This document shows positions 336 to 25,564 of a DNA stretch of 34,091 nt, piece by piece. This stretch comes from Candidatus Firestoneibacteriota bacterium (lineage in GTDB: Bacteria; Oederibacteriota; D2-FULL-39-29; JBDRBU01). The notes beneath the pieces were generated by a model. The model had not been told where the DNA came from and ran no database searches. It saw nothing but the letters and a program-made list of their open reading frames with translations. Made by a program: the position numbers and the translations under genes. The stretch is taken from positions 1 through 34,091 of the forward strand of contig JBDRBU010000048.1 of the NCBI GenBank assembly GCA_043822305.1, read 5' to 3'. Every line of letters starts with the position of its first letter. Position 1 is the first letter of the stretch.

Positions 336-1499
336 TTAATAACTATATGATACGCCCACGCTAACATTTAATATTCTGTAGTTATATTTTATATATTCCT
401 GATATTTCATGTTAGAGTCTGAAACTAGATAACTTATGCCTGCTACGGCATTAAGTTGCTGCATTATTGGATATTTTAAACTTAACCCGAGAGTATTTTC
501 CATATCTTTTTGGCTATCGGCTAAATAACTTCCATCAGATTCGCTTGCTTTTCTATCCTTATAACTTCTTATAAGAATTGAATAGAAAACTCCCAGATTT
601 AAATCTCCCATAGTAAATGTAATATATGGTTTAAAACTAATACTTAAATAAGTATAGTAATTTGGTAAGGGTATTAATTTATTTGTATCATAAAGGTCAA
701 CATTTGAACTATAATATGTTAGATTAGAATCCAATCCAGCTGTTGTTGTCTCAGATAAGGGAGTTCCTAAACTTAAATCTAGATAATGGGCAATATCTTT
801 TCTTTTTGTATCGGAAATTAGTCCCTGATCAGTTCTTGAATAACTATCTAAATAATCTTTAATTAACAGATTGTAAGATAAATCTGAATAAATCTCAGAG
901 AATTTATATTTCCAACCACTTGAAATATTAATAGCATTAAAATCCTTTGGTTTTTCTTCTTTCCCTTCTACTACGGTAGAATCTAAGGATTTATAATTTG
1001 GATATTTTCTTTGATAATACTTTACTCCAAGACTTATTGGAAATGGTTTTTCGTCCAAAAAGAGATTGTAAGCAGAAGAAACAGAGCCACCTATATCATA
1101 AAGGTCATATAAGCCCTTCCCAAAAGATTCATCTTTTGTTTCAACATTTAAATTATATCTGCCATCTAAACTTACCTTTGTTTCAATTTCTTTGCTAAAT
1201 TTATGTTTATATCCAGTTGAAAGTAAATTATTCATTCTTCTTAAAAACAAGGTCTCTTCTTCTATTACAAACTCACTTGCACTGAAATTAAAACTATATA
1301 TTGGAAGTAAATAATCAGATTCATCAAATTTAAATGCTGGCATTAAAAATAAAGAGCCAACACCAGATGCGCTTCCATTACTTCCAGTTACTGATGAATA
1401 CCCTACCCTTAAATCAGCATCAATTATAGGGATGAATTTTATGTCACAATACGCAGAGATTGAAAGTGCTATTAGAAAAATTAAAACAATTTTTTTCAT
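336..1499 (-). CDS. Putative outer-membrane beta-barrel protein
   Basis: Signal peptide MKKIVLIFLIALSISAYC; many alternating hydrophobic/aromatic strands; C-terminal VSVGVSYSY resembles a BamA beta-signal; AGGAGG SD. Confidence 0.65.
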   Translation of the reverse strand: MKKIVLIFLIALSISAYCDIKFIPIIDADLRVGYSSVTGSNGSASGVGSLFLMPAFKFDESDYLLPIYSFNFSASEFVIEEETLFLRRMNNLLSTGYKHKFSKEIETKVSLDGRYNLNVETKDESFGKGLYDLYDIGGSVSSAYNLFLDEKPFPISLGVKYYQRKYPNYKSLDSTVVEGKEEKPKDFNAINISSGWKYKFSEIYSDLSYNLLIKDYLDSYSRTDQGLISDTKRKDIAHYLDLSLGTPLSETTTAGLDSNLTYYSSNVDLYDTNKLIPLPNYYTYLSISFKPYITFTMGDLNLGVFYSILIRSYKDRKASESDGSYLADSQKDMENTLGLSLKYPIMQQLNAVAGISYLVSDSNMKYQEYIKYNYRILNVSVGVSYSY

Positions 1500-1514: not shown

Positions 1515-3068
1515 TTAATATAATTCGTTAAATATTTTTGGTAGAACTATTAAATCTATTGTTCTACCATCAAATTCTGTTGCTTCATAAACCAATTCCC
1601 AGTTATATTTTAATAAAGTATTTTGAAATTCATAAAAATTTACTGAATTAAACACATCAAGTACACTGTGTACGGTGCCACTGTCATCCACCAGATAAAG
1701 TCCGGTTTTAAAATATGTTTCATCAGGATATATATGTGTTATCATAAACCCACCTTCTTTCGTTAAAGAAAGTTCAACATCAAACGGTAAATTTGGGTTC
1801 CCTGATGTGTTCTGCCCCATATGGACGCCATTTAAGTCAATATATTCTGCTTTGTTGAATGTTTCTGCGATATTGTTATATGTTAATTTAAACTCCCATT
1901 TTTCAACATCATTTATTTTAAAAGTTTCTATAAATGGCTGTCTATAAAAACCAAAATCTCCGGAATTATCAAATATCGGGTCGTCAAAATTTACAATATT
2001 TTTTATAGTATCTCCAAAAGGATTTCTTAAGACAGATATTTCTTTGGTAAGATAGTATTCTAATGGTTTATCCGGATTAAACCAATCATCTCCATATAAA
2101 GCAATTTTTACATCCATAAAATTCTTTGGCAGGTCTTTATTAAAAATATCACTTATTTCAAGTGATGATACGCCTGCATTTGGGCCGCCTTCTCTTTTTG
2201 TAATATTTAACATCATAATAGTATTTGGTTTTGGTCTTAAAACATAATTATCGGTTCTTACTCTATATCCATGCATATCCATGGCTGATTTACCAAGCTG
2301 GACATCAGAGATTCGCTCTAATAAATCCTGTTTATCTTCTAAATTTGACCTATCTTTTATTTCAAGTAAATCTGACCTTAACTCGCGGATTTCTCTTTGT
2401 AGATTTTTAGAATCGTCTTCTATTCCAATAGTTTGGGCTGTTGTAGGTTTTTCTAATTTCATCCCAGTTTCGAATATTTCTTTAATCGTTTTTTGTTCTT
2501 CAGGAGAGAGTTCTCTTGGATTATTCAACAGCCCTTCTTTAAAATACGCTTTCTCATTTTCTTTTATGAAAATTTCTTTTTCTCTTAATATATCTGATAA
2601 AGCAACAATACCTTCCAAAACTAATACTTCTGTTTCTTCATTTGTTGTTTCCATTACAAATTCAGTTCCTTTTACGGCGGCAATAACTTTTGGCGAATGA
2701 ATTTCAAATGAATCATCCTGGTTTAATTTACTTACTTTTGCTTTTATCTTGCCAAAGAAGAGTTTTAGTATTGAGTTTTGAGAATTATTAGTAGATTTAA
2801 TCTGAACTAAATCTAAATTTGAATTTTCTCTTAAATTCAAAGTTGTACCATTAGAAAATTTTAATTCTGCTTTCCCGTTTTTTGTTCTTATCTTGTCGGC
2901 TGTATTTAGGTTTTGATTTAAGTTTACTTGTTGCCATTCACCTCCGGCTATAGATACCTCAACTTCGCCACTTAACTCCGTGATTGTAACAAAAGAACTT
3001 TGTTCTGCCATAGTAGTAATGGCAAAAACAAAACACAAGAACATCCCAATAAGAAAATTTTTATACAT
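1515..3068 (-). CDS. Exported FecR-domain protein with unknown C-terminal domain
   Basis: Signal peptide; FecR-like motifs DKIRTKNGKAELKFSNGTTLNLRENS and FEIHSPKVIAAVKGTEF...VLVLEGIV; AGGAGGT SD. Confidence 0.75.
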   Translation of the reverse strand: MYKNFLIGMFLCFVFAITTMAEQSSFVTITELSGEVEVSIAGGEWQQVNLNQNLNTADKIRTKNGKAELKFSNGTTLNLRENSNLDLVQIKSTNNSQNSILKLFFGKIKAKVSKLNQDDSFEIHSPKVIAAVKGTEFVMETTNEETEVLVLEGIVALSDILREKEIFIKENEKAYFKEGLLNNPRELSPEEQKTIKEIFETGMKLEKPTTAQTIGIEDDSKNLQREIRELRSDLLEIKDRSNLEDKQDLLERISDVQLGKSAMDMHGYRVRTDNYVLRPKPNTIMMLNITKREGGPNAGVSSLEISDIFNKDLPKNFMDVKIALYGDDWFNPDKPLEYYLTKEISVLRNPFGDTIKNIVNFDDPIFDNSGDFGFYRQPFIETFKINDVEKWEFKLTYNNIAETFNKAEYIDLNGVHMGQNTSGNPNLPFDVELSLTKEGGFMITHIYPDETYFKTGLYLVDDSGTVHSVLDVFNSVNFYEFQNTLLKYNWELVYEATEFDGRTIDLIVLPKIFNELY

Positions 3069-3207: not shown

Positions 3208-3236
3208 TTGACAGGTGTTGGTAATTATTATATACT
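3208..3236 (+). promoter_or_regulatory. Sigma70-type promoter for smc
   Basis: TTGACA-17 bp-TATACT. Confidence 0.75.
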
Positions 3237-3291
3237 ACATATAGATATTTTTTTGAATGTAAACACAATGTAAAGTATTGAGAGGGTCTAA

Positions 3292-6282
3292 TTGAGATTA
3301 AAGAAGTTAGAACTTTATAGTTTTAAATCTTTTGCCAACAAAACCGAGATAGTATTTGAGCCTGGTATTACTTGTATTGTAGGCCCAAATGGTGTAGGAA
3401 AATCAAATATTGTTGATGCTATTCGTTGGGTTCTGGGTGAACAAAGTGCAAAGTCTCTTCGCACAAATTTAATGGAGCATTGTATCTTTGATGGAACTGA
3501 TTATAGAAAACCTCTTGGGATGGCAGAGGTTTCTTTAGAATTTTCAGAATTAAAAGGTCAACTCGCCTTAAATTTTGAAGAAGTTAGAATCACTCGCCGA
3601 ATCTTCCGTAATGCCGAATGTGAATATTTTATAAATAACTCACCATCGCGGTTAAAAGATATAACCGAATTTTTATTAGATTCTGGAATTGGAGCAGATA
3701 CTTATTTTATAATGGAACAAGGCAAAATGGATGCGATTTTAAGTTCTAAACCTGTTGATCGAAGAGCTATATTTGAAGAAGCAGCAGGAATATCAAAATA
3801 TAAATTAAAAAAGGAAGAAGCACTTAGAAAATTAGAACAAGCGGAACAAAACTCAGTCAGAGTAAAAGATATAATTGCTGAAGTAAAAAGACAGGTTAAT
3901 AGTCTAGAGAGATACGCAAAAAAAGCAGAAAAATATAAAAAATTAACAGAGGAATTAAAAGAAATCGAAATTAGTTTAAAGGGTTGCGAATATAATAAAT
4001 TTTCTGAAGGACTCAATAATTTAACGAAAATAGAAGAATCTTTAAAAAAAGAGGTAACTGATTTACAGAATAATATAAGTAGTGAAGAAATTAGACTAAA
4101 AGATGGTAGAATCCAACTTTTGGAAGAAGAGAAAAATTTAAACTTAAAACAAGAGGAATTTTATAAATTAGCCAATGAGATAAATAATATTTTTAACAAA
4201 ATTAATTTACTTGATGAAAAGAAAGAAGGTTTAGTTAAAAATATTGATGATATTAATTTTAAAGTATTAGAACTTGATAAAAAAGAACAAAATATAATTT
4301 TTCAGATTGAAAATACAAAAAAAGAGTATGATGAAACAGTAAAATCCTTATCTTTCGAAAAAGAGAATATTAATAAACAAACAGAAATAACGAAAGTAGT
4401 TAAAGAAAAATTTAAAGATAACGAGAAAGCATTAAAAGAATTAAGAATAGAAATCTTCGATATTATAAATCAAGGGCTTCATCTGAAAAATGAGATAAAA
4501 AATTTTGAAAACAAAGAAAATGAACTAAAATATAAAACAGAAAAGATTACTAAAAAAATAGAAGAGTTAATAATCTCTAAAAATGCAAACGAAAGCAAAC
4601 TTTTAGAGTTTAAAAAAGTCTTTCCAGGTATAGGAGAAACTGGTAATTTTACTTCAGTCAAGGGGATTTATGAATATACTAGTCATGAAATAAAAAATAT
4701 AGAAGGTATTGAAAAAGAAATAAATTCTCATTTTAAAGAAGTAGAAAAAGGGGAAGATTTAAGTTTTATAAGAAGCGTTTTAAATAAAATAAGAGAAAAA
4801 TGGGGAAATTATGTTAGTAAAATCAAGCCTTTATTTTTAATACTACAGGATGTTGAAGGAGTAGTGGCTAAGAAGCAAGAAGAACAGAATGTATCTGATG
4901 AGATGGAGAGGATTGATAAAGAGATAAAATTACAAAATCTAGAAGGACAACAAATACAAGAAGAATTAAAAGATATAAAAGGTGGTAAAGAAACTGCTAT
5001 TCCAAAACTTAATGAGGTTCAAAATAAACAAAAAGAAAATGAAGAAAAAATAAAAAGATTAGAAGATGAAATAAATAGTGCCAGAAAAAGTGAAGAGGAA
5101 GACAACACAAAATGGACAGACTTTAAGGTAAGATTAACATTTCTTGAACAAAAAGACATAAATTTAAATAACGAAATTAGCAGACTTAAACTTAATCTTG
5201 AAGAAATCGAAGTTAATAAAAAATCGTTTTATAAGGAAATACAGGATAAGAGTCAACAAAAAAACTATGTAGAAATAGAAATTGAAACATTAAATAAGTT
5301 TTTAAAAGAAACAAATCCGAAAAAGGCTGAATTAGAAAATAATCTTGCTGAAGAAAAGAAAAATAATGAAGAAATTAGAAAGGCATTTTATAAAGATGAA
5401 GAAAATCTTAGAGAATACAGAAAAGCATACGAAGAAAAGCAAAGAACATCATACGAAACCAGTATTAAAATAAATGAGTTGTCACTTAAATCTAAGAACT
5501 GTAAAGAACAAATTTTAAGAGATTATAATATAGATTTAACAAATTATAAATCAGAAAAAGATTATCTTAAGGATAATAATATAAGCATTGAATCTGCTTT
5601 AGTAAAAACAGAAGAGATAAAACATTCCATAGAAGAAATTGGTCCAGTTAATCTTGTGGCCATGGAGGAGTTTGAAGAATTGCAGCATAGATTATCTTAT
5701 TTAACAAATCAAGAGAAAGACCTTGTAGAATCAAAGCAGTCCCTGATAAAAACGATACACTCACTTAATCAAATTAGTAAAGAACTATTTTTGGAAACAT
5801 TTACAAAGGTAAAAAATAATTTTAATGAAGTATTTAGAAAATTATTTAATGGAGGGCATGCCGATTTAATACTTATTGATGAAAATAATTTATTAGAAAC
5901 AGGAATAGAAATAATTGCCTGGCCACAAGGTAAAAGACCAAAAGATGTATCTTTACTTTCAGGAGGAGAAAAAGCCTTAACGGCTATAGGGCTGCTTTTT
6001 GCTGTGTTTATGGTAAAACCTTCCCCATTCTGTATATTAGATGAAATAGATGCTCCCTTAGATGATTCAAATGTTATTAGATTCAGAGATATGCTAAAAA
6101 ACACATTTAGTAATGTGCAATTCTTAATAGTCACACATAATAAACTTACCATGGAAATCGCAGATGTTTTATATGGTGTTACCCAAGCAGAACCAGGAGT
6201 ATCACAGGTATTGTCTTATAAACTTAAAGAAGAATCTTTAGCCTCTAAACCCGCCCAGATAAAAGAACAAACTGCTGTTTAA
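3292..6282 (+). CDS. smc: Chromosome segregation protein SMC, short and lacking a recognisable hinge
   Basis: FKSFA, Walker A GPNGVGKSN, Q-loop EQG, FEEAAG, GPVNL, signature LSGGEK, Walker B/D-loop LDEIDAPLDD, VTH; long coiled coils; TTG start. Confidence 0.9.
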   Translation: MRLKKLELYSFKSFANKTEIVFEPGITCIVGPNGVGKSNIVDAIRWVLGEQSAKSLRTNLMEHCIFDGTDYRKPLGMAEVSLEFSELKGQLALNFEEVRITRRIFRNAECEYFINNSPSRLKDITEFLLDSGIGADTYFIMEQGKMDAILSSKPVDRRAIFEEAAGISKYKLKKEEALRKLEQAEQNSVRVKDIIAEVKRQVNSLERYAKKAEKYKKLTEELKEIEISLKGCEYNKFSEGLNNLTKIEESLKKEVTDLQNNISSEEIRLKDGRIQLLEEEKNLNLKQEEFYKLANEINNIFNKINLLDEKKEGLVKNIDDINFKVLELDKKEQNIIFQIENTKKEYDETVKSLSFEKENINKQTEITKVVKEKFKDNEKALKELRIEIFDIINQGLHLKNEIKNFENKENELKYKTEKITKKIEELIISKNANESKLLEFKKVFPGIGETGNFTSVKGIYEYTSHEIKNIEGIEKEINSHFKEVEKGEDLSFIRSVLNKIREKWGNYVSKIKPLFLILQDVEGVVAKKQEEQNVSDEMERIDKEIKLQNLEGQQIQEELKDIKGGKETAIPKLNEVQNKQKENEEKIKRLEDEINSARKSEEEDNTKWTDFKVRLTFLEQKDINLNNEISRLKLNLEEIEVNKKSFYKEIQDKSQQKNYVEIEIETLNKFLKETNPKKAELENNLAEEKKNNEEIRKAFYKDEENLREYRKAYEEKQRTSYETSIKINELSLKSKNCKEQILRDYNIDLTNYKSEKDYLKDNNISIESALVKTEEIKHSIEEIGPVNLVAMEEFEELQHRLSYLTNQEKDLVESKQSLIKTIHSLNQISKELFLETFTKVKNNFNEVFRKLFNGGHADLILIDENNLLETGIEIIAWPQGKRPKDVSLLSGGEKALTAIGLLFAVFMVKPSPFCILDEIDAPLDDSNVIRFRDMLKNTFSNVQFLIVTHNKLTMEIADVLYGVTQAEPGVSQVLSYKLKEESLASKPAQIKEQTAV

Positions 6283-6456: not shown

Positions 6457-7263
6457 CTATTTCACACCCGAAATTTTTATGCTAACTATTGAATCTGTTA
6501 TTTCTTTTAATATTTTTTTAGATATCTTCAAATCTTTTATAATGGCTTTTACTGTTGGAGCATTAGCCATACAATTAATTGGCAAAAATGTTTCTTCTAT
6601 TGTATCAATTTTCCGGAATCCTGTCTTTTTTATTATACATAAATACTTATCTTTCATCATTGCTCCTGAAAGACAACCGATATAAGCATCTACTGATTTC
6701 TTCACTACATCAGGAAGTTTTTTTAATAAAACAATATCCGAAATCATCAGTCTGCCTCCTGGTTTTAAAACCCTGTATGCTTCACTAAAAACTTTCTTTT
6801 TATCAGGTGAAAGGTTAATCACACAATTGGAGATAATTACATCAACAGAATTATCATCTACTGGCAAATTTTCAATCTCTGCAAGTCTAAATTCTACATT
6901 TTTGTAGCCCACTTTTTTAGCGTTTTTTTGTGCTTTTTTTATCATTTCAGGTGTCATGTCTACACCAATAACTTTTCCATTATTTCCAACTTTATTAGCA
7001 GCAAGAAAACAGTCAAAACCTGCACCTGAACCTAAATCGAGCACAATCTCTCCTTTCTTTAAAGAAGCAAGAGCCACAGGATTTCCACAGCCAAGACCTA
7101 AATTTGTACCTTCAGGAACTGCTTCAATCTCTTCGTCTTTATAACCCATCTTCTTGCTGATATTTTTTGATAAATCAGAACCTCCACAGCAAGAAGGACT
7201 TTCATTTTTAGCTATTTTACTATATTCTTCTTTTACCAATTTTTTTATTTTAGCATTATTCAT
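6457..7263 (-). CDS. arsM: Arsenite S-adenosylmethionine methyltransferase
   Basis: N-terminal [36 protein letters not shown]: the conserved ArsM cysteines plus the SAM motif. Confidence 0.92.
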
Positions 7264-7465: not shown

Positions 7466-8251
7466 CTATTTTTTTCCAACATATATTCCATAACCAAAAT
7501 ATTCTTTTTTGGCTTTTTCAACAAAATTATCTAGTTCATTCATCCTATCTCTTATCTTTTTATTGAATAACTGTTTACAGAAAATCTTAATGGCTTTTAA
7601 TAGCCCAAGGTCACTTAAACCACAGGGACATTCCATATCATAACTTTTTGACGCTATCTCTGTTAAACCACTGCCAAAAATCAATTTTCTCCAGTTATCA
7701 AATGTTTTAGCATTTTGGAAAAATCCACAGATATTCTCTGCTTCTTTAAAAAACTCTTTTGGTGGTTGTTCCTTCCATGTTATTTCTAATATACCAACAT
7801 ACCCATGAGGTTTTGTCACCCTAATTGCTTCTTTAATTGCTTTTTCTTGATTGCTTACCATAATCAAGACTGCCTGAAATATAACAACATCAAATTCATT
7901 ATCAGGAAGTGGAATATTTTCTGCATTTGCTACTTTGAAAGTTAATTTATCTTCCAATCCTTTCTTTTTTGCAAGGTCCTTCGCTTGATTGATTAAATTT
8001 TCATCAAGGTCAATCCCTACTACTGAACATCCAAATTTTTCAACTAAATAGCAATCATTTGTTCCTTTCGCACAGGCAATATCCAAAACCTTTGTATCTT
8101 TATTGATATCGCATAGGTTAGCCATTTCATTAGTTGCCTTAAAACCACCTGGATGGAGAACAGGCAATTCCATAACATTTGCCATAAAATCAAATGTATC
8201 ACATTTTTCAATATCAACTGCACAATATTTATTTTTATCTTGATATGTCAT
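7466..8251 (-). CDS. Class I SAM-dependent methyltransferase
   Basis: LHPGG, VLDIACAKG, VGIDLD, AENIPLPDNEFDVV, RVTKPHG; several additional Cys (CPC). Confidence 0.88.
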   Translation of the reverse strand: MTYQDKNKYCAVDIEKCDTFDFMANVMELPVLHPGGFKATNEMANLCDINKDTKVLDIACAKGTNDCYLVEKFGCSVVGIDLDENLINQAKDLAKKKGLEDKLTFKVANAENIPLPDNEFDVVIFQAVLIMVSNQEKAIKEAIRVTKPHGYVGILEITWKEQPPKEFFKEAENICGFFQNAKTFDNWRKLIFGSGLTEIASKSYDMECPCGLSDLGLLKAIKIFCKQLFNKKIRDRMNELDNFVEKAKKEYFGYGIYVGKK

Positions 8252-18110: not shown

Positions 18111-20000
18111 ATGGGAGTACTTGATAAAATAAATTTTCCATCTGATTTAAAAAAATTAAATGAGCTGGAGTTAAAAAACCTGTGTAAAGAGTTAAGGGAG
18201 TTTGTTATAGGTGTTGTTTCAAAGACAGGTGGTCATTTAGCCTCTAATTTAGGGGTAGTTGAACTAACAGTTGCATTACATTACATATTTGATTTACCAA
18301 AAGATAAAATAATCTGGGATGTCGGTCATCAATCTTATGTTCATAAAATCCTAACAGGGAGAAAAGACAGATTTCATACTTTAAGACAATTCGGTGGAAT
18401 TAGTGGATTTCCCAAAAGGGCTGAAAGTGAATACGACTGTTTTAATACGGGTCATAGTGGAACATCAATTTCGGCTGCGCTTGGTCTGGCTACGGCCAGA
18501 GATTTAAAAAAGGAAGATTTTAAAGTTATAGCCGTAGTTGGAGATGCAAGTTTAAGTAATGGATTATCTTTAGAAGCAATTAATAATGCCGGTCACTTAA
18601 AAAAAGATTTAATAGTAATACTTAATGATAATGAAATGTCTATTTCGCCTAATGTTGGAGCGTTATCTTCATATCTTAACAAAGTAATTACAGGTGAGTT
18701 TTATAATCGCACAAAGGAAAAGGTAAAAAATTTAGTTTCCAAATATAATGTTTTAGGTGTCCCAGTTATTAGAGTAATGAAAGTAATAGAAGAAGGTGTA
18801 AAAGGATTAATTTCACCAGGAATATTATTTGAAGAATTAGGATTTAGATATATTGGGCCTGTTGATGGTCATAATATTAATTTATTGATGGAGACTCTGA
18901 AAAGTATAAAAAAGTTTAAAGAGCCAATTCTTTTGCATATATTAACAAAAAAAGGGAAAGGGTATGACCCGGCAGAAAGTGACCCTACTTCTTTTCATGG
19001 TACCCCTGCTTTTGAAATAGAAAGTGGAGAAGTAAATTCTAAGAAGATTAAAACATATACAGATGCTTTTTCCGAAGAGATTATTAGAATTGCTAAAAAG
19101 AATAAAAAAATCATAGCCATAACAGCCGCCATGTCTACTGGAACCGGGCTTGATAAATTTCGAGCGAGTTTTCCAGACAGGTTTTTTGATGTGGGGATTG
19201 CCGAAGAACATGCCGTAACATTTGCGGCCGGACTAGCTATCTCAGGATTTAAGCCAGTTGTAGCCATATATTCTACATTTTTACAAAGAGCATATGATGA
19301 AATAATTCATGATGTCTGCCTGCAAAATTTACCAGTAATATTTATAATTGATAGAGCCGGGATAGTAGGTGAAGATGGCGAGACACATCAAGGGACTTTT
19401 GATTTATCTTACTTAAGACACATGCCAAATATGATAATTATGTCTCCAGCTGATGAGTCTGAGTTTAAAAATATGCTTAAATTTGCAGTTAAATTAAATT
19501 CTCCTGTGGCTATAAGATATCCAAGATGTAAAATTGTAGTTAAGAGAATAAGTGGAAAAAGTAGTTTAAGTCTTGGAAAATCTGCCTTTGTAAAAGATGG
19601 GAAAAAAATTTGCATCCTTGTCGTTGGTAGTTTATTAAACGAAGTATTAGAGGGAGCAGAGGAATTAGAAAAAGAAGGAATAAATATTGGTATTATTAAT
19701 GTGAGGTTCATCAAACCTTTAGATGAAAAGTTATTAAGAAATTTGCAATTAAAATTTAAAAAAATTATTATCATGGAAGAAAATGTAATAGCCGGAGGAT
19801 ACGGTAGTAGTGTGCTTGAGTTTGTGAACAAAGAAGGGTTGGATTTGGATATAAAAATTATAGGATTTCCCGATAAATTTATTGAGAATGGTAATAGAAA
19901 CTTGCTTTTAGATAAATATGGTTTAAGTAAAAGAAATATAATTAAAATAGTAAAGGAGGCGACCGAAGGAAGTCCCCGTGGGACGACCAAAAAAATATGA
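18111..20000 (+). CDS. dxs: 1-deoxy-D-xylulose-5-phosphate synthase
   Basis: GGHLASNLG, WDVGHQ, GDASL, NDNEMSI, DVGIAEEHAV, YSTFLQRAYD, DRAG. Confidence 0.97.
   Translation: MGVLDKINFPSDLKKLNELELKNLCKELREFVIGVVSKTGGHLASNLGVVELTVALHYIFDLPKDKIIWDVGHQSYVHKILTGRKDRFHTLRQFGGISGFPKRAESEYDCFNTGHSGTSISAALGLATARDLKKEDFKVIAVVGDASLSNGLSLEAINNAGHLKKDLIVILNDNEMSISPNVGALSSYLNKVITGEFYNRTKEKVKNLVSKYNVLGVPVIRVMKVIEEGVKGLISPGILFEELGFRYIGPVDGHNINLLMETLKSIKKFKEPILLHILTKKGKGYDPAESDPTSFHGTPAFEIESGEVNSKKIKTYTDAFSEEIIRIAKKNKKIIAITAAMSTGTGLDKFRASFPDRFFDVGIAEEHAVTFAAGLAISGFKPVVAIYSTFLQRAYDEIIHDVCLQNLPVIFIIDRAGIVGEDGETHQGTFDLSYLRHMPNMIIMSPADESEFKNMLKFAVKLNSPVAIRYPRCKIVVKRISGKSSLSLGKSAFVKDGKKICILVVGSLLNEVLEGAEELEKEGINIGIINVRFIKPLDEKLLRNLQLKFKKIIIMEENVIAGGYGSSVLEFVNKEGLDLDIKIIGFPDKFIENGNRNLLLDKYGLSKRNIIKIVKEATEGSPRGTTKKI
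19960..19988. repeat. 24-bp GC-rich insertion in the dxs 3' end
   Basis: CGACC-GAAGGAAGTCCCCGTGGGA-CGACC; direct repeats 24 bp apart; GTCCC/GGGAC hairpin. Confidence 0.55.
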
Positions 20001-23821: not shown

Positions 23822-23854
23822 TATAGGTAAGGGTTGTAAAACTTGGAGGTTGTC

Positions 23855-25564
23855 TTGTCTCTTAGAGAACTACACATAAAAAATTTTGCACTTATAGATG
23901 ATTTAATAGTTGAATTTAAAAATGGATTTAATGTTTTAACAGGCGAGACCGGTGCAGGTAAATCAATTATAATAGATGCTGTTAATGCTATATTAGGGGA
24001 AAGAGTTAATTCTGATTTTGTAAAAACAGGGGAGAATTTAGCCATCGTCGAGGGTTTATTTGATAATGTGAGCAAGGAAGTCTTAGTAAAGTTAGAAGAA
24101 TCAGGTATTTATTCAGAAGAAGATTTAATTGTTAAAAGGGAGATACAAAGAGAAGGGAAAAGTAAAGGCTACATTAACAACAGTCTTGTTACTTTAGCCA
24201 CTTTAAAAAATATCGGGGAATATCTTGTTGATGTGCACGGTCAGCATGAACATCAAACACTTCTTAATCCAATTAATCAGCTTAATTTGTTGGATAGTTT
24301 TGCGAAATTAGAAAAAATGAAAGAGAACTATAAGGTAATTTATGTAAGATTTATGGAATTGATTAAGAAAAAAGATTCGTTAGTGATGAGCGAGCAGGAA
24401 AAACAAAGAAGAATGGACATTATAAATTTTCAGATTAAAGAGATAGAAACTGCTAAATTAAAAATTGGAGAAGATGAGGAGTTAGAGAACACAAGAAATA
24501 TTCTGGTTAATTCTGAAAAAATAGCAACAAATGTAAATGATATTTATAATCTGATTTATGGGGATGAGGCCACGGGCACATTAGGGCCATCTTCATTAAG
24601 TAATTTACAGGAGGCGTTAAAAAAACTGCAAAATTTAGTAAGTATTGATAAGTCGCTTGAAGGTGTTTTGAAAAATTTGGCTGGTGTAGTGTTAGAACTT
24701 GAAGAAGCAGCAAAAGGGATTTCAGATTATAAAGAAAAGATGGATTTTAACCCGGCTAAATTAGAGGAGATAGAAGACAGAAGAGATATAATCATCAGAC
24801 TAAAGAAAAAATACGGAGATAGTATAAATAGTATTCTGGAATACTATGAAAAATTAAAAAATGAATTAAAAGAAATAATTAGAAATGAAGAAGAAATTCA
24901 AAAAATAGAAAAAGATATTTTGGAATACAAGAAAGAACTAAAAAAGATTGGATTGGAATTGTCTGAAAAACGAAACAATGCCTCAAAAGATTTCGAGAAA
25001 AAAGTTATTAAAGAATTGGATGATCTGGGAATGCAAAAGACCCGATTTAAAGTTGAAATAAAACAATTTGAAAAAGAAGATGGATTGATAGAGATAAGTG
25101 GTAAGAGGTATGAGGTGTATAAAGACGGTCTTGATAAAATAACATTTTTAATATCTCCAAATGTAGGAGAAGAGTTAAAGCCATTAACGGAGATTGCCTC
25201 TGGTGGAGAACTCTCAAGGATCATGCTTGCTTTAAAAATAATTCTGGGTAGTTCTGATAAAATTCCAACCCTGATATTTGACGAGATAGATACAGGTCTA
25301 GGCGGGAACATGGGAAATGTAGTTGGAGAGAAGTTGTTAGAAGTTTCGAAACTCCATCAGGTAGTTTGTATAACGCATTTGCCACAAATTGCTGGATTTG
25401 CAGATGCTCATTTATTTGTTAAAAAAGAAGTAAAAGGAAATAAAACAGAAGTAACTCTTGAAACATTAGAAAAAGAGGGTAAAATAAAAGAAATTGCCCG
25501 AATGCTTGGCGGAGAAGATAAAGAAATAACTATAAAACACGCAAAAGAGTTGTTGAAAAAGTAA
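23855..25564 (+). CDS. recN: DNA repair protein RecN
   Basis: LTGETGAGKS, VHGQHE, ASGGELSR, FDEIDTG, ITHLPQIA, EIARML; likely start TTG 23855 after GGAGG. Confidence 0.96.
   Translation: MSLRELHIKNFALIDDLIVEFKNGFNVLTGETGAGKSIIIDAVNAILGERVNSDFVKTGENLAIVEGLFDNVSKEVLVKLEESGIYSEEDLIVKREIQREGKSKGYINNSLVTLATLKNIGEYLVDVHGQHEHQTLLNPINQLNLLDSFAKLEKMKENYKVIYVRFMELIKKKDSLVMSEQEKQRRMDIINFQIKEIETAKLKIGEDEELENTRNILVNSEKIATNVNDIYNLIYGDEATGTLGPSSLSNLQEALKKLQNLVSIDKSLEGVLKNLAGVVLELEEAAKGISDYKEKMDFNPAKLEEIEDRRDIIIRLKKKYGDSINSILEYYEKLKNELKEIIRNEEEIQKIEKDILEYKKELKKIGLELSEKRNNASKDFEKKVIKELDDLGMQKTRFKVEIKQFEKEDGLIEISGKRYEVYKDGLDKITFLISPNVGEELKPLTEIASGGELSRIMLALKIILGSSDKIPTLIFDEIDTGLGGNMGNVVGEKLLEVSKLHQVVCITHLPQIAGFADAHLFVKKEVKGNKTEVTLETLEKEGKIKEIARMLGGEDKEITIKHAKELLKK

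Follow-up and report, generated by a model that had tools for sequence, protein, structure and literature searches.

A Smc protein without a canonical hinge in Candidatus Firestonebacteria and the predicted dimerization of its helical apex

The hinge is regarded as a defining and mechanistically important part of SMC (structural maintenance of chromosomes) proteins, being the point at which two chains dimerize, a site of DNA binding, and a proposed gate for DNA. Here we describe a bacterial smc gene whose product lacks a recognizable hinge. The gene lies in a stretch of 34,091 nucleotides from a Candidatus Firestoneibacteriota bacterium (contig JBDRBU010000048.1; the whole stretch is referred to below as the window), where it occupies positions 3292..6282 of the plus strand as a single open reading frame (ORF) of 996 residues with a TTG start codon. 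A preliminary description, made from the letters of the window, had singled out positions 4600-4870, which correspond to residues 437-526 of Smc, and had proposed an intact gene for a functional condensin variant with complete ATPase heads and an alternative dimerization apex. The frame is indeed intact, and its start codon is aligned with the Met start of the orthologues in the family alignment.

The smc gene product and its partners

Away from its center, the protein reads as a standard bacterial Smc. With the NCBIfam model TIGR02168 (SMC_prok_B) it reaches 807.8 bits, above the curated cut-off of 567.35. This match falls into two stretches, of which the best places Smc residues 2-439 on profile positions 1-439, and the best stretch of TIGR02169 places residues 527-978 on profile positions 715-1165. 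Because these stretches cover them, the heads and the greater part of each arm can be called canonical. Pfam SMC_N also matches, at 169.7 bits over residues 3-971, as do general AAA families. The head motifs quoted in the preliminary description are all present, namely FEEAAG at residues 161-166, GPVNL at 784-788, LSGGEK at 889-894, and PSPFCILDEIDAPLD at 910-924, and the ABC-type head is complete, with a Walker A motif, the signature LSGGE, a Walker B motif with its catalytic glutamate, and an H-loop.

Along the plus strand, the N-terminal half of the head (residues 1-167; 3292..3792), identified by SMC_N, carries Walker A as GPNGxGKS at residues 31-38. It is followed by the helix of the N-arm (residues 168-443, 276 residues; 3793..4620), which is delimited by a full-length AlphaFold2 model and contains TIGR02168 profile positions up to 439. 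Beyond the apex, the C-arm has joint-like interruptions at residues 746-787 (5527..5652), with helix breaks at 746-765 and at 784-787; the latter is the GPVN motif, of which G784, V786, and N787 are invariant in the family alignment. The head-proximal part of the C-arm and the C-terminal half of the head complete the protein (residues 788-996; 5653..6279), with LSGGE at 889-893, Walker B as ILDEID at 915-920, and the H-loop histidine H949. In all 12 sequences of the order (12/12), the invariant positions include the G31-K37 region (G31, P32, N33, G34, G36, and K37 of Walker A), L889-E893, L916, D917, E918, I919, D920, and H949.

Two other identities were considered and rejected. The protein is not a Rad50/SbcC, as it has no CxxC hook and the best Rad50 model gives it 79.1 bits, far short of the 1087 needed to pass. 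Nor is it a RecN, as TIGR00634 gives it 34.6 bits against a cut-off of 407.85 and the true recN, encoding a separate SMC-like repair ATPase of 573 residues, lies elsewhere in the window (23843-25564, plus strand; 536.2 bits with the same model). The separate encoding of RecN had been pointed out before and stands.

The remaining parts of a Smc condensin are present in the same genome. Adjacent ORFs of 221 and 194 residues on another contig encode ScpA (61.7 bits) and ScpB (186.1 bits), so that scpA and scpB do occur elsewhere in the genome, where the preliminary description had thought to look for them, and ParB is found at 125.4 bits. Of the 12 genomes of the order, 11 carry ScpB, and the one that does not is an 80%-complete assembly. 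We found no second SMC_N protein of SMC size in the genome. A search for the SbcC/Mks-type Walker B module (PF13558), whose control was positive in 12 of 14 genomes and which did not extend to MukB-specific models, was also negative. We regard it as very likely that the gene is a real, functional smc. The earlier proposal of a functional condensin variant agrees with the intact and conserved gene, the ATPase motifs, and the presence of ScpAB, from which we infer the condensin activity.

Absence of the hinge in the order and descent of the gene

The hinge is missing by every search that we made. SMC_hinge (PF06470) is not among the 11 Pfam families listed at E<=10 for the protein, and a six-frame search of its own genome (96.8% complete) with PF06470 also gave no match; the corresponding control search was positive in 10 of 14 known genomes. 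Residues 437-526 contain no cysteine, and the apex thus has no CxxC hook. Both absences had been asserted in the preliminary description, and both are upheld. Judged from the ends of the profile stretches, some 87 residues (440-526) take the place of about 275 profile positions, which comprise the hinge and the hinge-proximal coil. Because there is no PF06470 match and the apex is modeled as all-helical (see below), we describe the protein as orthologous to Smc by descent but variant in architecture, and not as a canonical Smc.

This architecture is common to the order. Each of the 11 other genomes (11/11) has one collinear smc orthologue with 56-59% identity, aligning from query residue 1-2 to 982-993 and encoded in open frames of 999-1048 residues, and PF06470 was found in none of the 12 genomes in six-frame searches (0/12). 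Homologues, which the preliminary description had suggested checking, thus share the architecture, and, because they do, misassembly or a strain-specific deletion in the window is argued against, as all genomes of the order have the same form. In a database search, 12 further hinge-free clusters with about 53-77% identity were among the matches listed; five hinge-free rows bear the NCBI name Candidatus Firestonebacteria, which we use for the Smc of this order. The precomputed PF06470 annotation was missing in 23 of the 120 database rows listed.

These data bear on whether the protein is a real condensin at all. It could instead be a decaying or repurposed paralogue, or the product of a strain deletion or an assembly artefact, in a cell whose chromosome is organized by other means. 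The missing hinge would by itself be consistent with such an idea, and the genome is a draft of 125 contigs. However, the frame is intact, the ATPase motifs are invariant, and the same architecture recurs in 11/11 other genomes of the order and in further metagenome proteins with 56-78% identity. Moreover, the genome has no other SMC_N protein of SMC size, no SMC_hinge, and no Walker B module of the SbcC/Mks type, and ScpAB is retained. We take this possibility to be largely refuted and very improbable.

Relatives outside the order do have the hinge. PF06470 was found in 25 of the 41 relatives searched overall, including, at 95 bits, the single genome of the same class, G012. The Smc of G012 (L021:378-3281, minus strand) is truncated by a contig end at approximately residue 60, and 967 residues remain of a full length of about 1027. 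Its hinge occupies residues 378-490 of what remains (91.1 bits) and lies opposite the apex of the window Smc in a pairwise alignment with 38% identity overall. A second hinge-bearing smc, of 978 residues, is found in G021 (L022:334-3270, plus strand). Because these short proteins keep their hinges, short Smc arms are common in the phylum independently of hinge loss.

We examined descent with a quick maximum-likelihood tree of 46 proteins: 8 of the 12 Firestonebacteria, 10 other hinge-free database rows, 3 proteins cut from the genomes of relatives, and 25 of 97 hinge-bearing rows, chosen manually along the ranked list. We dropped columns that were filled in fewer than 70% of rows, a filter that removes most hinge columns, and branch support was taken as the Shimodaira-Hasegawa-like approximate likelihood ratio test (SH-aLRT) without bootstraps; heterogeneous composition was flagged for 18 rows, and G018 (described below) and G021 lie on long branches. 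The hinge-free Firestonebacteria Smc proteins form one clade (SH-aLRT 100), which is sister to the hinge-bearing G012 (SH-aLRT 96) and nested among hinge-bearing Smc. By this tree, the Firestonebacteria Smc is shown to be derived from a hinge-bearing ancestor.

The stem of the hinge-free clade is long, at 0.62 changes per column compared with 0.59 for the end branch of its sister. This length suggests that the rest of Smc changed faster around the time at which the hinge was replaced.

The state of the hinge requires at least three changes on the 46-row tree. Two or more further hinge-free groups of Smc-like proteins, 821-1085 residues long and including two rows named Omnitrophica, stand as separate clades beside hinge-bearing Smc. 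Their rows are P0056, P0071, P0074, P0079, P0098, P0103, P0104, and P0120, together with P0101 and P0119, and none of the six that were re-scanned with Pfam has a hinge. Within the phylum itself, the Smc of G018, a genome of family f10 (L023:314-3403, minus strand; 1029 residues), is without a Pfam hinge, and PF06470 was found in neither of the two f10 genomes (89% and 83% complete). These rows and G018 match over the same head and arm regions as the Firestonebacteria Smc and likewise lack PF06470, but their apexes cannot be aligned with that of Firestonebacteria and they occupy other positions in the tree. The search for a common apex was negative for the other database groups by alignment and for G018 by profile comparison, which gave a probability of 0.6%. 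Because the apexes do not align, the positions in the tree differ, and at least three changes are required, we treat these groups as independent events. Thus, hinge loss appears to be recurrent, and the Firestonebacteria apex, being unrelated to those of the other groups, specific to its lineage. These comparisons suggest that loss of the hinge is recurrent in uncultured bacteria.

A search of 1.84 billion representative sequences with the apex profile returned two hits at E<=0.001, one of which belongs to the apex's own family. The other is a repetitive protein of 1499 residues, which we took as coiled-coil noise and rejected as a relative.

The helical apex and its predicted pairing

The segment that stands in place of the hinge, FPGIGETGNFTSVKGIYEY...LFLILQDVEG (residues 444-523), was modeled with AlphaFold2 as part of a construct spanning residues 397-576, using an alignment of 10 sequences. 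The model is all-helical, without beta structure or a hinge fold, and has a mean predicted local distance difference test (pLDDT) score of 89.3. The preliminary description of a short and mostly helical apex lacking a hinge thus holds in the model, where residues 444-520 form a loop-helix-turn-helix. None of the three refuting outcomes that it had named, an SMC_hinge hit, a hinge fold in the model, or a misassembly or strain-specific deletion, was encountered. The helix of the N-arm (H1) ends at 443 and is followed by a loop at residues 444-455 (FPGIGETGNFTS; 4621..4656, plus strand, as are all elements of the apex), which is the junction of the N-arm and the apex and the block of lowest pLDDT (71-78). 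Helix H2 (residues 456-486; 4657..4749) carries the invariant residues Y460, Y462, T463, E466, and F481 and is part of the predicted dimer interface. Following a tip turn at residues 487-489 (4750..4758), helix H3 (residues 490-519; 4759..4848) carries the invariant W504, Y507, K512, P513, L514, F515, L518, and Q519 and forms the predicted parallel, in-register dimer core. A kink at D520 leads into the C-arm helix H4 (residues 521-745; kink and helix, 4849..5526), with invariant V521, G523, V525, K527, K528, E530, E531, and Q532. Altogether 22 apex columns between residues 460 and 532, D520 among them, are invariant, and the arms are only moderately conserved. H3 is 50% hydrophobic, compared with 29-33% in H1, H2, and H4.

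The tip turn and the kink are found in both AlphaFold2 models, and the full-length model (mean pLDDT 65.3; predicted template modeling score 0.29) has the same apex helices. Its arm helices span residues 168-443, 521-745, and 788-851, with pLDDT mostly 70-88 in the N-arm block. Since its heads are modeled poorly (pLDDT <50 for residues 1-157 and 847-930), we use it for helix boundaries only. In the apex model, the H2-H3 hairpin continues the antiparallel arms; a long antiparallel coiled-coil arm is present in this Smc, and the hairpin resembles solved fragments of Smc arms. For the apex model, Foldseek found nothing in the PDB at E<=0.001, its weak top rows being Smc5/6 and Smc arm fragments, and a sequence search of the PDB with the apex profile reached unrelated proteins, with a best E of 0.038. 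VIA-align ranked the coiled coil of Pyrococcus Smc first (5xg2; Z 12.5, root-mean-square deviation 10.2, 163 residues aligned), ahead of the coiled coil of Rad50 in its rod form (6zff; Z 11.3, root-mean-square deviation 3.4, 115 residues aligned). Because Z scores of up to 12.5 are common for helical models and generic hairpins abound, we claim no specific fold relative of the apex.

The models also bear on the length of the arms, which had been called shorter than usual. The N-arm measures 276 residues and the C side about 298, the latter being an estimate because the boundary of the head is poorly modeled. In wild-type Bacillus subtilis, the Smc arm is 344 residues long, and natural arm lengths have modes at 238, 341, and 515 residues, according to Burmann et al. 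(2017, PMC5344682). The arms of the Firestonebacteria Smc are thus shorter when the N-arm is compared with that of B. subtilis. The description does not hold fully, as two more helices of 30 residues extend the rod, and the arm comes to about 320 residues if H2 and H3 are counted as part of it.

When two copies of the apex were predicted together, the interaction prediction score from aligned errors (ipSAE) was 0.67, 0.64, and 0.68 in three runs, versus 0.00-0.01 in three controls. In the calibration of the method, 20 of 30 proteins whose solved structures are pairs attained the mark for this score, as did 1 of 23 whose structures are single chains. The two-copy runs share at least 75% of their contacts, with a partner pLDDT of 75-76, and the confident interface is confined to residues 460-521 in H2 and H3. 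The self-contacts of lowest error lie at construct residues 94, 97, 101, 104, 108, 115, 118, and 122 (residues 490-518 of Smc); because these are spaced by three to four residues, as in a heptad pattern, H3 and its counterpart H3' are predicted to pair in a parallel, in-register manner. H2 of one chain lies antiparallel on H3' of the other, and the whole forms a four-helix bundle that both arms leave from the same end, side by side. Interface columns are more conserved than the other columns of the apex (majority fraction 0.81 versus 0.62; permutation p of about 0.001), and 9 of the 24 interface residues are invariant. The model predicts homodimerization of Smc through a four-helix bundle at the apex. 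The alternative dimerization apex of the preliminary description is likewise supported as a prediction, in that the two-copy model passes its controls (0.67 versus 0.01 for the best of them).

Two other arrangements of the apex need to be weighed. First, H2-H3 could simply cap each arm as a closed tip, with no dimer at this end. The chains would then be joined at the heads only, through ATP engagement and ScpA bridging, or the protein would be a single-armed motor, and the apex residues would serve packing within the chain or contact with DNA. Consistent with this, the single-chain model is already a well-packed hairpin with its pLDDT of 89.3, part of the conserved set lies at a and d positions within the chain, and a hinge-less clade from the ocean has been described, in the accessible part of its report, only as a coiled coil without a terminal hinge (PMC12153180). 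However, the two-copy model passes the ipSAE mark by a wide distance (0.67 versus 0.01), the 50% hydrophobic content of H3 exceeds what a two-helix hairpin needs, and the conservation of the apex is far above that of the flanking arms. We consider a closed tip unlikely.

Second, the surface of H2 and H3 together with the invariant VAKKQEEQ segment could, in place of self-pairing, be a binding site for DNA or for a different protein by which the arms are joined or the complex is recruited. The invariant polar residues K527, K528, E530, E531, and Q532, which follow the bundle, are not explained by a hydrophobic core, and an apex profile without relatives outside the Smc of this lineage would fit a lineage-specific interaction. 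Against this, no candidate partner was identified, the neighbors of smc are unrelated genes that encode a FecR/LipL45-like protein and methyltransferases, and self-pairing already accounts for the hydrophobic face. Such bridging by a partner seems to us still harder to credit than a closed tip, and quite improbable.

Thus, a working Smc-ScpAB in which the hinge has been replaced by a lineage-specific helical dimerization module is, in our judgment, the probable explanation. Several considerations weigh against it. The predicted dimer comes from one structure-prediction job, whose controls were unrelated proteins rather than helical hairpins, and amphipathic hairpins in general may be modeled as bundles. 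Some of the interface residues also belong to the core of the hairpin within the chain, a role for which they would be conserved in any case. With 10-12 sequences from one order, the family alignment has little depth, and the heads of the full-length model are poor. The canonical SMC hinge also binds DNA, in addition to its role in pairing. Finally, the arm, at about 276-298 residues, falls between two of the natural modes of arm length given above (238 and 341; PMC5344682), unless H2 and H3 are included in it.

If the hinge has been replaced in this way, the protein would be the one Smc of the organism and would drive a Smc-ScpAB condensin that is loaded by ParB. The toroidal alpha/beta hinge would have given way, in the order's ancestor, to a loop-H2-turn-H3 element of about 77 residues. 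Within a single chain, H2 and H3 would extend the antiparallel arm to a closed tip, and in the dimer two such hairpins would pack as a four-helix bundle with H3 and H3' at its core. Because H3 and H3' would be parallel and in register, both arms would emerge next to each other from one end of the bundle, as they do in the rod-shaped Smc dimer, and the loop at 444-455 and the kink at D520-G523 might act as flexible junctions that let the arms open. Dimerization through the bundle and a normal condensin activity are what we infer from the models and the gene content.

Several known systems offer points of comparison. With canonical Smc of the B. subtilis type, the Firestonebacteria protein shares the head motifs, the antiparallel arms, the joint-like break near GPVN, and the partners ScpA, ScpB, and ParB. 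The two differ in that the former has SMC_hinge, whereas the latter has a helix-turn-helix of about 87 residues for the same 275 or so profile positions. A closer parallel at the apex is Smc(Zh), a B. subtilis Smc whose hinge was swapped for the zinc hook of Pyrococcus Rad50 and which supported normal growth (Burmann et al. 2017, PMC5344682); the authors concluded that how the dimerization domain is folded does not matter for segregation in B. subtilis. There, as here, a small, unrelated dimerization element (predicted to be one in our case) stands in place of the hinge where a helical hairpin ends. However, Smc(Zh) is a chimera made in the laboratory and carries a CxxC zinc site, whereas the Firestonebacteria Smc is natural, has an apex free of cysteine, and has a hydrophobic four-helix bundle as its predicted means of pairing. 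The rod of Rad50/SbcC (6zff) resembles the arrangement predicted here in its helical hairpin apex and its parallel, side-by-side arms. It differs in having a CxxC motif and Mre11/SbcD as partners, where this Smc has no CxxC and is accompanied by ScpAB. RecN likewise combines an SMC-like head and a short coiled coil with the lack of a hinge.

A clade of hinge-less SMC proteins has been reported from metagenomes of the ocean and was placed near Actinomycetes (Environ Microbiome 2025, PMC12153180). It was the only prior report of a hinge-free prokaryotic SMC found in a literature search outside which most subscription journals lay, and the same search found nothing on the Smc of Firestonebacteria. 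Those proteins, too, have SMC heads and a coiled coil, lack both hinge and CxxC, and belong to uncultured bacteria. They differ in their placement near Actinomycetes, and the portion of the text available gives no mode of dimerization and no ScpAB partners for them; the profile search with the Firestonebacteria apex, moreover, reached no relatives beyond this lineage.

Taking these comparisons together, we lean, by a little, toward a broader view, in which Firestonebacteria have a complete ParB/Smc-ScpAB system whose Smc dimerizes by a lineage-specific parallel four-helix bundle, as one of at least three independent natural replacements of the hinge; the hinge fold would then be dispensable in nature, and hinge-free condensins would be an unrecognized, recurrent class. 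If true, the dispensability of the hinge fold, together with its roles in DNA binding and as a proposed gate, would extend from engineered B. subtilis to natural systems. A natural, order-wide, hinge-free Smc-ScpAB with a hinge-bearing sister lineage would offer a test of which functions of the hinge are essential. Moreover, the apex is small (about 77 residues), its predicted dimer is directly testable, and the protein parallels in nature what the engineered hinge swap did in the laboratory.

Upstream region and neighboring genes

The smc gene had also been credited with a strong promoter. A promoter-like site, TTGACA-17-TATACT, does occur at 3208..3236 on the plus strand, 56 nt upstream of the start of smc, and agrees with the consensus at 11 of 12 positions, and a ribosome-binding-like stretch, GAGAGGG, lies at 3280-3286 (plus strand), just 5' of the start. 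However, the upstream region contains 19 promoter-like sites versus 17.9 expected by chance from shuffled sequences. Because this count is no higher than in the shuffles, we regard the site as a mere consensus match, and the claim of a strong promoter is not sustained.

The genes around smc are unrelated to it. Upstream, on the minus strand, lies a gene for a 517-residue protein (1515-3068) that weakly resembles FecR and Leptospira LipL45/Lsa33, with scores far under the cut-offs, followed by a 387-residue ORF (336-1499, minus strand) without an NCBIfam match. Directly 3' of smc, on the opposite strand, are methyltransferase-like genes. The first is arsenite-methyltransferase-like (6457-7263, minus strand; PRK11873, 345.7 bits against a cut-off of 263), and the second, also downstream of smc, encodes another S-adenosylmethionine-dependent methyltransferase (7466-8251, minus strand).

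Elsewhere in the window, a 193-residue antisense ORF (19409-19990, minus strand) lies wholly within a 629-residue ORF (18111-20000, plus strand) and is probably open by chance in this AT-rich DNA.

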